Source: an uncultured Phycisphaerales bacterium (GTDB taxonomy: Bacteria > Planctomycetota > Phycisphaerae > Tepidisphaerales > Tepidisphaeraceae). Taken from it: 64,000 bases of DNA. Of the stretch, positions 31,199 through 36,442 are shown in pieces. Each line of letters begins with the position of its first letter. Within the stretch, counting starts at the first letter, position 1. Under the pieces are notes generated by a model. The model was not told the origin of the DNA and did no database searches. It worked only from the letters and a program-made list of their open reading frames with translations. Made by a program: the position numbers and the translations under genes. The stretch is from the NCBI GenBank assembly GCA_963758525.1, contig CAVWVQ010000003.1, positions 1,280,001 to 1,344,000 of the forward strand. The letters are read 5' to 3'.

Positions 31199-33907
31199 TC
31201 ATCTTGCGGAGCCTTCCTTGCATGCAGGGAGGGCGTCGAGGAATAGTTTTCCGTATCGTTTGGTGCGGACCCGGCTATCGAGGATCACGACGATTCCCTT
31301 GTCCGTCCGGCTGCGGATCAATCTCCCGAAACCCTGCTTCAGCTTGATGATTGCTTCGGGGACTGAATATTCCATGAAGGGGTTGCCGCCGTTCTTCTTG
31401 ATTGATTCGAGCCGTGCTTCGACCACGGGTTCATCCGGAACGGCAAAGGGGAGTTTGACGATAATCACATTGCGGAGGCGGTCCCCCTGCACGTCGATCC
31501 CCTGCCAGAAACTGCTGGTGCCGAAGAGAACGCCGTTTTCGCTGTCGCGAAACCGATCGAGGAGCGTGCCGCGCGGCGTGCCGTCTCCCTGGACCAGCAG
31601 ACGATAGCCGCGTGACTCGATACGCTGACGCAGCCGCTCGGCCGCTTCGCGGAGCATGGAGTAGCTCGTGAAGAGGACAAATGCCCCGCCGCTGGTGAGA
31701 TTCACGTACTGCATGATCTTCTCGCAAGCCGCGGGCAAAAAGCGCAGCGTATCGCTGGGTTCGGGAAGATCTGTTTCGAGATAGAGCGTCGCCTGCGAGG
31801 CATAGTCGAAAGGCGATCCCAGTTGCAGCGTCTGCGTTGATTCGATGCCAAGGCGAGCTTGGATGTAGGCGAACGCCGGGTCCGTACCACGGGTTTCCAA
31901 CCCGTGCGAGTGGCTCGGTTCCCCCGTACCACGGGTTTCCAACCCGTGCGAGCCGCGTGGCACTGCCGAATCCCCCATTATCAAATCCAACGCTTTCTGA
32001 TTCACCCCCCTCCAAATCCAGTCATTCAACCCGCTCTTTTCCGGATTCCCGATCGCGTATTCCACCGCATGTATAAGGTCCTTCTCGTCGCGAACAAGAT
32101 GGTCGTAGTACTCGGTCAGCCAGTATTCTCCACTTCGGTTGAGCAGCTTGTTTGCTGCTCGCGCCGTCCAGAGTTTCCAGGAATGAAGAACCGCGTGCAG
32201 TTCGACGCCCCGCAGCGGCTGCAGCACCACATGGACGTGATTCGGCATGATGCACCATGCCAACAGCCTATACCGCTCGCCATCGAAGTGCTTCAGCGCA
32301 TTCTCCACCATCTCCGCAATTTCAGGCTCGCCAAGTGTGCATGAGCCATGGCCGGCGTCGAGATACGACTCGACCCGATCGGAGTACAGGTATTCCAATC
32401 GCTTTAGCTCGTCGGCAGATAGCGGCCGTCTTTGATCACGCGCCGTCTCGATAATGGCTTGGCGCTCAGTACGCCAGCTCTTGAGAACTTCGGCTGGCAG
32501 GGAATCCGCAAGGCGAAAACATACTGCATAAATCGACCCGTTCTTTGTCCAGTGCGGGAGACGGGCGCCCTGGCGGACCTGAAGATTACTTTTACTCGGC
32601 GCCGTTCGCACGGGTTGGAAACCCGTGGTACGCGAGGTGCAGAGGGTTGCGCTGGTGAGCACCACGCTCTTCACCTTCTCGAACAGATGCGTCTTGAGGC
32701 CCGAGGCGATGCTCACGGGGGCGGCGTGAAGCGCGAGCTTGCGCGACGGACCTTTGGACAGGTCCATCCAATACACCGTGTCATCCACGGCCTGGCTCAT
32801 GATGGCTTCAAGCATGGCGGCGGTATTGGCGATTTTGTCGGCCGTGCTGCTCAGCTCGGAAATCTCGGCGTCTTCCGTCAGCGATGGCAGCATCGCCTTG
32901 AGATGGAGCGAAAGATTGCGCAGTTTCGGGGAGAGGTCGTTTTCGACCACGTGCGGCTGATCGATCCGGCCGTTGCCGCGGCCCTGCTCGCGCTGCCAAT
33001 CGGCGCAGCGGTCGAAAAAGGCGTCGGTCAGAATGTGCAGTTCTTCCACGTCGCGGATCGCGTCGTTGGCGGCCGAAGCGTGCGTGCTGAGCATCCCCTT
33101 GCCGCGTTTGGGATCGTGAAGCATGCGGAGCTGATATCGCATGCCGTTCTCGGTGATGTTCATTCCAAAGTGACTGGCGGCGACGTCTTCGATGGTGTGG
33201 CCTTCATCGAAAATCACGGCGTCGTACTTTGGCAGATAGTTGATGCCCGCCATGCGCAGCGCCAGATCGGAGAAGAACAGCGCGTGATTGACGATGAGAA
33301 TCGTTCCGTTTTGCATGCGGCGTTTGGCTGCCTGCCAGAAGCATTCGTTGTAGTAATTGCACTTCTTGCCGAGGCAGTTTCCATGTTCCGCGCAGACGCG
33401 GTCCCACACGCCCGGCTCGGGCTCGACGGGCAAATCAGATCGTGACCCGTCGCGGGTTTCGGTGGCCCATTTCTCGATATCCCACAGCGACTCGAGCTGC
33501 CGTTGCTGTTCGAACAGCGACCCCTGCCGCGCGCGTGTCTGTTCCAGTCGCCGCTGGCAGAGATAGTTGCCGCGCCCCTTCACCAGCACGGCGGTAAATT
33601 CGTCGGGATAGACCGCCTGCAGGAGCGGGATGTCTTTCTGGATTAACTGTTCCTGCAAAGCGATGGTGTGGGTCGAGATGACGATGCGCTTTTGTTTGCG
33701 CACGGCGAAGTCGATCGCCGGCAGGAGATATGCGAAGGACTTGCCGACGCCGGTGCCCGCCTCGACGAGCAGATGATGTTCGTCGGTCAGCGCGCGCTCG
33801 ACAGCCTCGGCCATCTCCAATTGCTGCGGGCGAAACTCGTAACGCTCGCCAAGCCGGCGCGCGACGGCGCCATCGGGGGCGAGAATTGATTCCAGCGCGG
33901 AGGACAT
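31199..33907 (-). CDS. dinG: DinG/YoaA-family Fe-S helicase interrupted in frame by a RAYT transposase domain
   Basis: RPQQ, EAGTGVGKS, KGRGNYLC plus Cys cluster, NHALF, DEGH, LTSATL, LFTSY, FWQGIDV, KLPF, KQGFGRLIR. Confidence 0.95.
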   Translation of the reverse strand: MSSALESILAPDGAVARRLGERYEFRPQQLEMAEAVERALTDEHHLLVEAGTGVGKSFAYLLPAIDFAVRKQKRIVISTHTIALQEQLIQKDIPLLQAVYPDEFTAVLVKGRGNYLCQRRLEQTRARQGSLFEQQRQLESLWDIEKWATETRDGSRSDLPVEPEPGVWDRVCAEHGNCLGKKCNYYNECFWQAAKRRMQNGTILIVNHALFFSDLALRMAGINYLPKYDAVIFDEGHTIEDVAASHFGMNITENGMRYQLRMLHDPKRGKGMLSTHASAANDAIRDVEELHILTDAFFDRCADWQREQGRGNGRIDQPHVVENDLSPKLRNLSLHLKAMLPSLTEDAEISELSSTADKIANTAAMLEAIMSQAVDDTVYWMDLSKGPSRKLALHAAPVSIASGLKTHLFEKVKSVVLTSATLCTSRTTGFQPVRTAPSKSNLQVRQGARLPHWTKNGSIYAVCFRLADSLPAEVLKSWRTERQAIIETARDQRRPLSADELKRLEYLYSDRVESYLDAGHGSCTLGEPEIAEMVENALKHFDGERYRLLAWCIMPNHVHVVLQPLRGVELHAVLHSWKLWTARAANKLLNRSGEYWLTEYYDHLVRDEKDLIHAVEYAIGNPEKSGLNDWIWRGVNQKALDLIMGDSAVPRGSHGLETRGTGEPSHSHGLETRGTDPAFAYIQARLGIESTQTLQLGSPFDYASQATLYLETDLPEPSDTLRFLPAACEKIMQYVNLTSGGAFVLFTSYSMLREAAERLRQRIESRGYRLLVQGDGTPRGTLLDRFRDSENGVLFGTSSFWQGIDVQGDRLRNVIIVKLPFAVPDEPVVEARLESIKKNGGNPFMEYSVPEAIIKLKQGFGRLIRSRTDKGIVVILDSRVRTKRYGKLFLDALPACKEGSAR
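31883..32632 (-). mobile_element. REP-bounded RAYT (Y1 HUH transposase) cassette inside dinG
   Basis: RLPHW...Y.V.FRLADSLP, MPNHVH (HUH), HSWK..TAR, W..EYYDH.VR, EY..GNP; 27-bp perfect inverted REPs at both ends plus a third REP at 31925-31951. Confidence 0.92.
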
Positions 33908-33926: not shown

Positions 33927-34203
33927 AGGGTTCAGGGTGTCAGGGGTCAGGGTGTCAGGGTTCAGGGTTCAGGGTGTCAGGGGTCAGGGGGTCAGGGGGT
34001 CAGGGGGTCAGGGGGTCAGGGGGTCAGGGGGTCAGGGGGTCAGGGGGTCAGGGGGTCAGGGATTCGAGTTCCGAACAACTATTGCGACCCGCAATGCGGG
34101 GCTGTCGTTCGCGCAGCGTACTTCAACACCCGGTCCCGCGACTCTTCCTGAACCCTGAACCCTGAACCCTGAACCCTGAACCCTGAACCCCGAACCCTGA
34201 CCC
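33927..34203. repeat. GGTTCAG heptamer and GGGGGTCA octamer array with an inverted CTGAACC array
   Basis: G-rich tandem array at 33927-34060 and C-rich array at 34148-34203. Confidence 0.9.
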
Positions 34204-34205
34204 CT

Positions 34206-34867
34206 CTAACGTCCAATCTCTTCCTTCCACAAATGCGGATGGGCGGCAATGAAATCCTTCATGATGCGAATGCATTGCGAATCGTGGAGGTCGACGACTT
34301 GCACTCCGTGGGATTTGAGGAATTCGGGATCGCCGGCGAAATTTTCCGATTCTCCGACGACGATCCTGGGCACGCCAAACTGAACTGCGGCGCCGCTGCA
34401 AAGGTGACAGGGCATCAGCGTGGAGTAGAGCACGGTGTCCTTATAGGTCTTCTGCCGGCCGGCGCGCGTCAAACAGTCGATCTCGGCGTGAGCCATCGGA
34501 TCATTGTTCTGCACGCGACGATTATGGCCGCGGGCGATGACCTGCCCGTCCCGCACCAGCACCGATCCAATCGGCACGCCGCCCTCGGACAAACTGAGGT
34601 TGGCCTCTTCCAGGGCGGCGAGCATAAACGGGTCCGGCGCGGCGCCGGGTTTGAGGGCGGCGAGGTCGCCGACATCTTTGGGCGCCAATTCGGCCGCCGA
34701 TTTGGTCTCCTTTTGAATCTGCTGATAGACCTCCTTGCGATGGACGGGCACCTTGCGGGCGCGCTGATGCCGAGGCGCACTTTTTCGCCGCGCACATCGA
34801 CTACGGTGACTTCAATTTCGTCACCGATCATAATGGTCTGGTCGCGCGTGCGGGCGAGCACAAGCAT
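34206..34867 (-). CDS. csrA: CsrA-domain / cytosine-deaminase-domain fusion protein; apparent 1-nt deletion near 34755
   Basis: MLVLARTRDQTIMIGDEIEVTVVDVRGEKVRLGISAP, then after the shift KVPVHRKEVYQQIQKE, running without a stop into GGVPIG, GHNRRVQ, HAE and PCHLC. Confidence 0.8.
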
Positions 34868-34923
34868 GGAGTTGCCTCGATTCAATGAAACTACTGAAAT
34901 GATAGGCGCTTGGATGGGTTCGG

Positions 34924-35627
34924 TCAGGCGAGGGGACGCCCTTTCTGCTGCGACGGCGGGCGGGGGTACTTGTCGGAAGTGTCCCGGCGTTTGGGGATCT
35001 CGACGATCACATGCTGCTCCGCGCCGCTCAGCATCACCGGATGAATCTTCACGTCGCCGCCGCCCAGCAGGCGGATGATGCGCTGTGCGCCGGGGAGTTC
35101 GTCGGCCACCTTTGGGCCTTTCATTGCCAGCATCTTGCCTCCGGTTTTGACCAGGGGCAGGCAATACTCCGCGAGAAAATCGAGTGTGGCGACGGCACGG
35201 GCGACAACCACGTCAAACGCGCCGCGGTGCTTCGTGCGGGCGACGTCTTCGGCGCGTTGATCGCTGATGCTGACGTTGGTCAATACCAGCTCCGCGACCG
35301 CGCGCTGCAGAAACGCGGCTTTTTTGCGGGTGGATTCGATCAGGAACACGTGCGCATCCGGCCGGGCGATCGCCAACGGAATGCCGGGAACGCCTCCGCC
35401 GGTCCCCACGTCCGCCAGGCGAAAATCGCCTTGCGGCAGCAGCGGAAGCAGCGTGAGCGAATCAGCAACATGCTGCAGTTCGGCAGCGGCGCGGTCGGTG
35501 ATCCGCGTGAGATTCATCGTCTCGTTGGCGGCAAGAAGGAGGTCGAGATAGCGCCCAGACGCTCGTGCTGCGAGGCATCCAAGGTGCGGCCGGCATTGGC
35601 GGCCAGGGCCGTCCATTGGTCGTTCAT
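34924..35627 (-). CDS. rsmG: 16S rRNA m7G527 methyltransferase; apparent 1-nt deletion near 35553
   Basis: [45 protein letters not shown] overlaps the thiG stop (ATGA). Confidence 0.93.
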
Positions 35628-36442
35628 TCGCCGGGAATATAGCTGATGACGCCGGCGAAGGGCGAGCTTGCGGTCGCGTATCGCTTGCGGGGAATGCGAC
35701 CGGCTTCGTATGCCAGCCGGCCGGACTCGAGCGCATGGCGCATCGCATGGGCCATCTTGACGGGATCTTTCGCATGGGCGATGCCGGTGTTCAACAAGAC
35801 GCCATCAGCGCCCAATTCCATTGCGATGGTCACGTCGCTGGCGGTGCCAACGCCCGCATCAACGATCACCGGATACGTGGGATCGTTTTCCTTGAGCGTC
35901 TCCAGGCACAGCGAAATGTTGAGGGGATTGAGCACGCCCTGCCCCGAGCCGATGGGGCTTCCGGCCGGCATTACGCATGCCGCGCCGGCTTCCTTCAGCC
36001 GCCGGGCGGCAATCGGATCGTCGCTGGTGTAACAGAGAACGGTAAAGCCTTCCTTCACCAGCTCGCGCGTGGCTTCCAGCGTGCCGAGCGGATCGGGGAG
36101 AAGTGTTTTTTTGTCGCCGAGCACTTCCAGCTTCACCCATCCCGCGCCCGGATTCTTTTGCTTTTCCAGCAGGTCGCGGCCCAGGAGCGAGACGCGCACC
36201 GCATCCTCCGCGTTGAAGCAGCCGGCGGTGTTGGGGAGAATGACGTAGCGGTCGAGATCGAGAAACTCCAGCAGACTGCGCCCTTCCTTGTCCACCAGCC
36301 GCTCGCGGCGCACCGCCACCGTCACGACCTGCGCACCGCTGGCGTCCAGCGCCTGCCGCATGACTTCATAGTCGGCGTACTTCCCCGTTCCGACGACGAG
36401 CCGGCTTTTGACCTCGAATTTTCCAATCTTCAACACGTTCAT
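35624..36442 (-). CDS. thiG: Thiazole synthase
   Basis: [48 protein letters not shown]. Confidence 0.97.

Follow-up and report, generated by a model that had tools for sequence, protein, structure and literature searches.

The locus studied here raises the question of whether a planctomycete makes an RNA-binding regulator and a deaminase as one protein and, if so, what such a chain would do. It lies in the window, by which we mean the whole analysed stretch of 64,000 nucleotides from an uncultured Phycisphaerales bacterium (assembly GCA_963758525.1, here G000; contig CAVWVQ010000003.1, positions 1,280,001 to 1,344,000). CsrA has been described as a small stand-alone dimer under the control of sRNAs or FliW. 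An earlier note on this DNA described a CsrA sequence that is split by a single missing base near 34755 and runs on through a linker into a zinc-dependent deaminase, and it put forward an RNA-targeted deaminase as one reading of the fusion.

Layout and distribution of the fused gene

The gene is located on the minus strand, where an ATG at 34867 starts 37 CsrA codons that match positions 1-37 of the Pfam CsrA profile with 60 bits, against a curated cut-off of 27. The remainder of CsrA is encoded in the -1 frame from 34751 (VPVHRKEVYQQIQKE), which is free of stop codons through a linker of about 18-25 residues and into the deaminase. The latter contains HAE at 34490-34482, PCHLC at 34412-34398 and a WKEEIG tail, and the stop codon is at 34208-34206. 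The features of the locus are:

35624..36442, minus strand: thiG, member of the conserved thiS-thiG-rsmG-deaminase block
34924..35613, minus strand: rsmG (gidB), with an approximate start; found upstream of the deaminase as a conserved neighbour in both its fused and its standalone form
34899..34927, minus strand: CTGACC-17-TATCAT, a sigma-70-like promoter site that overlaps the stop of rsmG (3 sites against 0.2 in shuffled sequences)
34757..34867, minus strand: CsrA domain residues 1-37 (ATG 34867), with L2, L4, R6, R26 and R31
34752..34759, minus strand: one-base frame break, most likely a C lost from a CCC run (assembly indel)
34689..34751, minus strand: CsrA residues 40-60, covering the last strand, to which H43-R44-K45-E46 belong, and the C-terminal helix
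34635..34688, minus strand: linker, variable in sequence (mean identity of 24% in 134 fusions) and modelled with low confidence
34206..34634, minus strand: Fcy1/yeast-type zinc cytosine deaminase domain, with GHN at 34529-34521 and lid W..E at 34229-34218
31199..33907, minus strand: DinG-like helicase, downstream; also 3' of the deaminase in several fused and standalone relatives

The promoter-like site would yield a leader of about 25 nucleotides, and GGA is absent from the leader of the window copy. A search of Rfam around the fused gene returned nothing credible, with one hit at chance level.

Relatives of the gene were identified with an intact copy of 227 amino acids from the same genus (P0002) as the query. 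All of the best 120 of 7,985 protein hits contain both PF02599 and PF00383, in two-domain chains of 215-257 residues. The fusion is present in 53 of the 141 genomes of the window's family, being intact in 47 and frame-broken in six (G000, G069, G123, G140, G149 and G163, with G149 judged from a partial match). Of the intact copies, 43 match end to end in a single frame and four more were found to be intact on inspection. One unpublished genome, G004, is among the 53 and supplies one row in the csrA comparisons; the conclusions are independent of it. Chance read-through of neighbouring genes is ruled out by the two-domain structure of the best 120 homologues and by the 47 single-frame copies. 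Two separate genes are likewise rejected, since the relatives have a single open frame, and no separate csrA was found in the DNA examined around the standalone-deaminase loci L130-L168. The fusion proposed in the earlier note has thus been borne out, and its architecture is found in at least 120 protein clusters.

The best 80 loci in a species-level genome collection included 41 fused ones, all of them from Tepidisphaerales, Phycisphaerae or Planctomycetota genomes. Outside the family, 32 of 337 genomes of the class match the deaminase, and none of these matches aligns from residue 1. As an alignment may be split by a long linker, 10 of the 32 genomes were inspected, and in each of these csrA is absent within about 3 kb of the deaminase. 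As far as searched, the fusion is restricted to one lineage. A profile search of all 50%-identity representatives yielded four full-length fusion clusters among the best 150, and the ESM Atlas contains an automatically named cluster of 80 members with the CsrA-deaminase architecture. The fusion was found in no phage record (none of 116 matching records reaches 80% coverage). Annotation pipelines name the fused proteins after one half only.

The frame break

The intact relatives, with their one open frame, confirm that a single base is missing from the window gene, but the position near 34755 was not upheld. Of 134 fused proteins, 98 have R and 32 have K directly after “AP”, whereas A was not observed there. 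Because this residue is R or K and never A, the lost base was assigned to the CCC run at 34759-34757.

The base was most probably lost through an error of assembly. As a control for frame switches, 289 proteins from genome G001 were used as queries, of which 154 passed the orthology filter. The G000 orthologues of these intact proteins contained frame switches in 25 of 154 cases, or 1.4 per 10 kb, which gives a prior of 9% for a gene of the fusion's size. Consistently, all six broken fusions come from assemblies of 1-10 contigs, which also hold seven intact copies, while none of the 40 fusions in fragmented assemblies is broken (Fisher p 7e-5, with kin not independent). The break positions also differ among the broken fusions. 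As a separate point, about 16% of the tested G000 genes are frame-shifted, which calls for caution with other split-gene findings from this assembly.

A break that is real in this genome only, whether as a pseudogene, a programmed -1 frameshift or an internal start giving a free deaminase, is improbable. It would fit with two features of the window copy, a glutamic acid at the lid position where an aspartic acid is invariant in the best 120 of 7,985 homologues, and a threonine at the FliW-contact residue Asn55. It would also fit with the GTG at 34751 and the ATG at 34625, which are possible starts. The in-frame ATG at 34625 has a GGA seven nucleotides upstream and may be a weak internal start, so the earlier statement that the deaminase has no evident ribosome-binding site is not absolute. 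However, the window copy departs from the consensus at just two of 92 highly conserved columns, one of them that of the lid residue, a number that is matched or exceeded by 25 of the 134 intact proteins. The frame switches in the control genes of the same assembly, and the occurrence of all broken copies in assemblies of few contigs at varying sites, also speak against a real break. A programmed frameshift was rejected, as the slippery heptamer is absent at the break site.

The deaminase domain

The deaminase half is predicted to be a yeast-type free-base cytosine deaminase, and by homology its substrate would be cytosine. Among proteins of solved structure, yeast cytosine deaminases are the nearest relatives (E 3e-35), and the best TadA was matched with an E-value of 3e-19. 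A structure model of P0002 based on 134 sequences (mean pLDDT 88) contains two domains, a low-confidence linker at residues 61-80 and a C-terminal helix at residues 216-223. The top 25 fold matches to this model in the PDB are the yeast enzyme, with 42-44% identity, followed by TadA with 27-35%. In the yeast enzyme, H62, E64, C91, C94, N51, F114, W152 and D155 are described as zinc ligands, ligand contacts and lid residues (PMC11000218). The equivalents of all of these are invariant in the best 120 of 7,985 homologues, and the window copy keeps three of the pocket and lid residues N51, F114, W152 and D155, the exception being the glutamic acid mentioned above. The resemblance to free-base deaminases of the Fcy1 type, which had been raised as a caveat to the RNA-targeting idea, therefore stands. 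Since the lid residues and the fold are retained, the modelled active site is probably not open to a base that is attached to a backbone.

Membership in the TadA family was rejected. The TadA model (NCBIfam PRK10860) gives 77.9 bits against a cut-off of 150, the fusion has the motif MPCxLC and lacks the TadA motif EPCxMC (PMC3239186), and its lid is of the yeast type. A separate TadA-like gene with EPCPMC is present in G000 (L004). The anti-phage dCTP deaminases (NF041025) were also rejected, with 30.6-34.6 bits against 400. Labels given to the fused proteins at JGI vary between cytosine deaminase and creatinine deaminase. G000 also encodes upp and an NCS1 nucleobase permease, and one member of the deaminase family is fused to UPRTase (P0424). 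A second, more distant deaminase of the same type in G000 (L008, C5:332383-332658) is frame-shifted right after PCxxC.

These results bear on the suggestion that CsrA guides the deaminase to GGA hairpins, where nearby C would be converted to U, or A to I, in mRNA. An RNA-binding domain joined by a flexible linker to a deaminase with HxE and PCxxC is the architecture that such an editor would have, the loop DPxAHAE is TadA-like, and one fusion (L039) is without the lid. RNA editing is nevertheless very unlikely and the suggestion found poor support, as the lid tryptophan and aspartic acid and the pocket asparagine and phenylalanine are retained in all of the best 120 homologues, the TadA score stays below its cut-off, and the fold is nearer to the yeast enzyme than to TadA. 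Furthermore, unfused orthologues that are 65-75% identical to the fused deaminase are found at the same locus, CsrA also takes partners that are not deaminases (PurN, MoaE and GNAT), and catalytically dead fusions exist.

The CsrA domain and its flagellar paralogue

Judged from its conservation, the CsrA half is a live paralogue of the copy in the flagellar fliW-csrA-flagellin cluster. A CsrA match is present in 138 of the 141 family genomes, and a csrA gene is placed between fliW and flagellin in G000 and in nearly all relatives. The fused copies are located after rsmG or elsewhere rather than beside fliW and flagellin, a place that is occupied by the other csrA in G000. The question in the earlier note of whether the genome has further csrA copies is answered by this flagellar copy and a third CsrA-like gene. 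The two types evolve at different rates; in the 11 genomes that contain both, the mean identity over residues 1-58 is 96% for the flagellar and 68% for the fused copies.

The intact relative P0002 scores above the CsrA cut-offs (87.4 against 73 and 78.5 against 70.1), and the 43 fused copies compared all have L2, L4, R6, R26, R31, R44 and E46. Residues L4 and R44, which are critical for RNA binding by CsrA (PMC7652899), are present in all of the best 120 of 7,985 homologues and in the two pieces of the window copy. The CsrA half is thus predicted to bind GGA motifs in RNA. In 10 close pairs, dN/dS was 0-0.19 for CsrA and 0.02-0.16 for the deaminase, showing purifying selection on both halves. 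The two cores each have a mean identity of 77%, as compared to 24% in the linker and 46% in the FliW helix, which is the least conserved part of the fused CsrA. Asn55, a residue of this helix that FliW binding requires in B. subtilis (bioRxiv 2020.07.02.184341), is present in 105 of the best 120 of 7,985 homologues and in 38 of 43 genomic fusions.

In many fused genes the flagellar csrA leader CCAGGAAGGAGCC is retained, wholly or in part. A -10-like hexamer lies within 90 nt upstream in 31 of 43 fused genes, as compared to 7 of 27 standalone deaminases and 1 of 30 flagellar csrA genes, and the fused csrA usually has a promoter-like site of its own. GGA is present in 30 of 43 leaders of fused genes, a count that is confounded by the ribosome-binding site. 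Universal self-repression via the leader was rejected, as the leader in the window is without GGA. The flagellin leader of G000 has GGA motifs.

Some observations were also made on other csrA genes. The flagellar csrA leader CCAGGAAGGAGCC (L059-L088 and L001) is nearly invariant and has at least two GGA in 28 of 30 cases, and is a candidate self-repression site. Divergent split or tandem CsrA-like proteins, including the third in G000, are encoded at L003:1369-1872 (G000 C3), L247 and L248, and by P0122-P0172 in part. Standalone extra csrA genes were found in surroundings that look prophage-like by eye from the neighbouring translations (L169, L174, L234, L235, L236, L240, L241, L242 and L246). 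Another 25 relatives of csrA, all shorter than 90 residues, are on viral contigs (L353-L377), and both these and the copies in prophage-like surroundings are a possible source of duplicates.

The locus and a proposed order of events

The gene block thiS-thiG-rsmG-deaminase is common to the fused and the standalone forms, which points to an arrival of csrA at a resident deaminase gene. Of the 41 fused loci, 31 have an rsmG gene, as have 12 of the 28 standalone ones. At L135, L144 and L027 the deaminase follows directly after rsmG and csrA is absent, while csrA alone follows rsmG at L171. The linkers of L120, L123 and L124 end in AGGAG, followed by the deaminase's own methionine, which looks like a read-through into an old ribosome-binding site.

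Phylogenies were inferred from the deaminases (88 rows, 148 columns, quick search) and from csrA DNA (109 rows, 186 nt), and both were poorly resolved. In a weakly supported tree, the fused deaminases are interspersed among the standalone ones, and counts of label changes for the deaminase gave 9 and 11. A single origin of the deaminase fusion with several losses was not rejected by the AU test (p 0.39; 95 rows, with 4 long-branch rows left out). The F114 loop contains a 7-residue insert in 35 of 37 standalone domains, as compared to about 9 of 49 fused domains, suggesting that the two forms are not fully interchangeable, although ancestry may explain the difference.

Other partners of CsrA and inactive deaminases

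Another 40 csrA loci, representing part of the copies in the family, were inspected for other fusions. CsrA-PurN is placed after ileS in six genomes:

L172:3041-3889, L173:2996-3838, L229:2763-3632, L230:1895-2764, L231:2705-3574, L232:1929-2783: CsrA-PurN fusions after ileS

In G000, purN is located directly after ileS and is unfused. A fusion of CsrA to MoaE is placed after carA in one genome (G024, L176:3085-3789), and in G034 a CsrA-deaminase fusion occupies the same carA position, with a related csrA part. The deaminase of the six PurN-fusion genomes and of G024 stands alone wherever one was found. CsrA-PurN is the sole PurN above the cut-off in five of five genomes tested and CsrA-MoaE is the only MoaE in G024, and the fused enzymes therefore seem to keep their ordinary jobs.

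CsrA is present in 25 of the best 120 PurN protein hits. Of 811 long CsrA proteins, the best 120 include 26 deaminase fusions and eight GNAT fusions, along with one unconfirmed fusion each to TIR, glyoxalase and AraC-GyrI. The GNAT fusions comprise P0161 and seven related clusters (locus L274:590-1306); none was found in the 141 family genomes, 75 of which have a standalone GNAT. A coupling to pyrimidine salvage, the other reading offered in the earlier note, may exist, and the variety of these predicted partners shows that the phenomenon is not pyrimidine-specific.

Several fused deaminases have lost residues that are essential for catalysis. In L226 (1112-1825), an intact CsrA is followed by a deaminase without the histidine and both cysteines, and P0363, P0366 and P0367 combine an intact CsrA with a deaminase that lacks the HxE histidine and CxxC. 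The fused deaminase in L225 (3008-3721) is without the first cysteine and that in L039 (5523-6236) without the lid. Such dead domains are kept near full length in at least three clusters at 50% identity. Either half can thus go, leaving csrA alone (L171), the deaminase alone (L135, L144 and L027) or a dead deaminase (L226, P0363, P0366 and P0367). An intact enzyme behind a CsrA without R44 was not seen among the fusions, in searches that favour conserved CsrA domains. Second csrA copies that stand alone without a partner are found at L170, L171, L184 and L243, and a second deaminase match is present in G034 and G139.

One explanation of these patterns is a coupling to metabolites, in which a ligand or turnover in the enzyme dimer would affect how the tethered CsrA dimer is arranged or how available it is. 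The status of nucleobases, or of purines and cofactors in the PurN and MoaE versions, would then tune the translation of CsrA targets such as flagellin mRNA. We regard this explanation as doubtful. It would account for the long retention of both halves under purifying selection and for the recurrence of fusions chiefly to enzymes of nucleotide metabolism (at least 120 deaminase clusters and at least 25 PurN clusters). Both domains are also homodimeric in solved relatives (PMC11000218; PMC13443453), and the flagellin leader in G000 offers GGA motifs as a target. However, the linker would be a poor allosteric relay, as it is only 24% conserved, has low confidence in the model and varies by about 40 residues, with a distance between HRKE and GGLPIG of 48-90. 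The partners (deaminase, formyltransferase, MoaE and GNAT) are chemically unrelated, fusions without zinc ligands persist, and the lack of GGA in the window leader means that self-regulation is not universal.

The dead domains are easier to understand if the appended domain matters as a folded and usually dimeric body rather than as an enzyme. It might stabilise a spare CsrA, favour homodimers at the expense of mixed dimers with the flagellar CsrA, hinder FliW, or cross-link dimers into multivalent RNA-binding assemblies. The near-full-length domains behind an intact CsrA in L226, P0363, P0366 and P0367, and the losses in L225 and L039, would fit with such a role, as would the low conservation of the FliW helix (46%). 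The partners also interchange, since MoaE and deaminase fusions with related csrA parts are both placed directly after carA. Yet the great majority of the fusions have all the catalytic residues, 105 of the best 120 of 7,985 homologues retain N55, and the partnerless second copies at L170, L171, L184 and L243 do without any such body. The dead forms may represent transient decay after a second deaminase took over, as the second matches in G034 and G139 would allow. A scaffold role is likewise doubtful.

The reading that we favour, with about even confidence, is that of a second CsrA riding on small housekeeping enzymes, with the halves working largely independently. One chain would join a paralogous CsrA, binding RNA at GGA, to a deaminase that converts free cytosine to uracil. 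A duplicate of the flagellar csrA, often with its leader CCAGGAAGG, would have landed between rsmG and the resident deaminase, run in frame into the latter and gained a promoter of the housekeeping type. The ileS-purN locus, moaE and a GNAT gene may have received a csrA in the same way. The deaminase would go on with base salvage, in a genome that has upp and the NCS1 permease. The cell would gain a second CsrA that is expressed outside the flagellar operon and may act as a dimeric translational regulator at GGA sites, either homodimerising through both domains or pairing with the flagellar CsrA. In most members, FliW would still be able to reach the fused CsrA. By fusing in frame, a csrA duplicate could become established at the 5' end of a gene that the cell needs and leave that gene functional, and such a join would be hard to reverse.

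Some of the results count against independent halves. The fusion has lasted through many genera with a mean identity of 77% in both halves, and CsrA fusions have arisen repeatedly, so the join itself may be selected. The dead deaminase domains were kept near full length rather than deleted, the loops of fused and standalone deaminases differ, and the two commonest partners, the deaminase and PurN, both belong to nucleotide metabolism. A tentative further reading is that CsrA may have become a reusable N-terminal module in this one planctomycete family, grafted several times onto small enzymes that serve nucleotide or cofactor metabolism (the deaminase, PurN, MoaE and a GNAT), and that in the resulting class of enzyme-regulators the enzyme half controls or scaffolds RNA binding, wiring metabolite status to CsrA-dependent translation, including that of flagellin.

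Relation to known systems

Trigger enzymes are enzymes that double as regulators, such as the RNA-binding aconitase. The fusion resembles them in having a metabolic active site and an RNA-binding function, here predicted, on one polypeptide. It differs in that a dedicated CsrA domain, appended to the enzyme, would bind the RNA, and a coupling between the two is a proposal. TadA and other nucleic-acid deaminases belong to the same superfamily, with HxE and PCxxC, but the fusion falls below the TadA cut-off, is without EPCxMC and has a yeast-type lid. The likeness to Fcy1 (PDB 1UAQ and 1P6O) is closer, with 42-44% identity, an rmsd of mostly 1.5-1.9 A over about 144 columns, and conserved equivalents in the fusions of the zinc ligands, the catalytic glutamic acid, N51, F114, W152 and D155. 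Unlike Fcy1, the fusion is bacterial, carries an N-terminal CsrA, and has an alanine for Gly63 and the loop DPMAHAE, and the window copy has a glutamic acid at D155.

FliW-antagonised CsrA, of the CsrA/RsmA family PF02599, is known from Bacillus subtilis and from Geobacillus, and the structure of the latter (PDB 5DMB; E 2e-16) matches the N-terminal 80 residues better than any other solved structure, with an ungapped core. L4 and R44 are kept, the helix N55 is present in 105 of the best 120 of 7,985 homologues, and the genome has a canonical fliW-csrA-flagellin cluster. The fused copy differs in being a second, faster-evolving copy outside the flagellar cluster, in an enzyme-bearing chain of 215-257 residues. 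The CsrA proteins described in a 2026 survey are 61-100 residues long (PMC13443453). The cross-bacterial functional CsrA library of that study was capped at 100 residues and thus leaves the fusions untouched, and the word deaminase is absent from the survey (PMC13443453). CsrA is likewise unmentioned in a classification of the deaminases (PMC3239186). The CsrA-deaminase fusion is undescribed in the literature searched; the supplements of PMC13443453, which may list long CsrA homologues, are outside that search.

Each half comes from a known family, and it is the recurrent fusion of CsrA to enzymes that is worth pursuing, with RNA editing unlikely. A second CsrA that was repeatedly fused to essential housekeeping enzymes, and that has outlived the enzyme half, provides a natural series on how enzyme-regulators arise. 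The same series bears on whether tethering alters the specificity of CsrA or its control by FliW, and the natural CsrA-deaminase scaffold offers a ready test for a free-base deaminase acting on RNA. Two independent functions on one chain would be an ordinary outcome of moderate interest.

Surrounding DNA

Between the deaminase stop and the helicase gene there are tandem arrays at 33928-34061 and 34147-34205, made up of GGGGTCAG in 17 copies and CCTGAAC in 8.4 copies. The DinG-like helicase itself (902 aa, 31199-33907, minus strand) contains an in-frame insert of about 210-250 residues, at approximately 31880-32632, that is missing from the relative L135. The insert has a weak match to IS200/RAYT-like transposases (PF01797, E 1e-4). 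Inverted repeats of 33 nt (31925-31957 and 32600-32632) mark its edges, and the repeat occurs once more at 31882-31910. It thus has the appearance of a repeat-flanked transposase module that is translated within the helicase.
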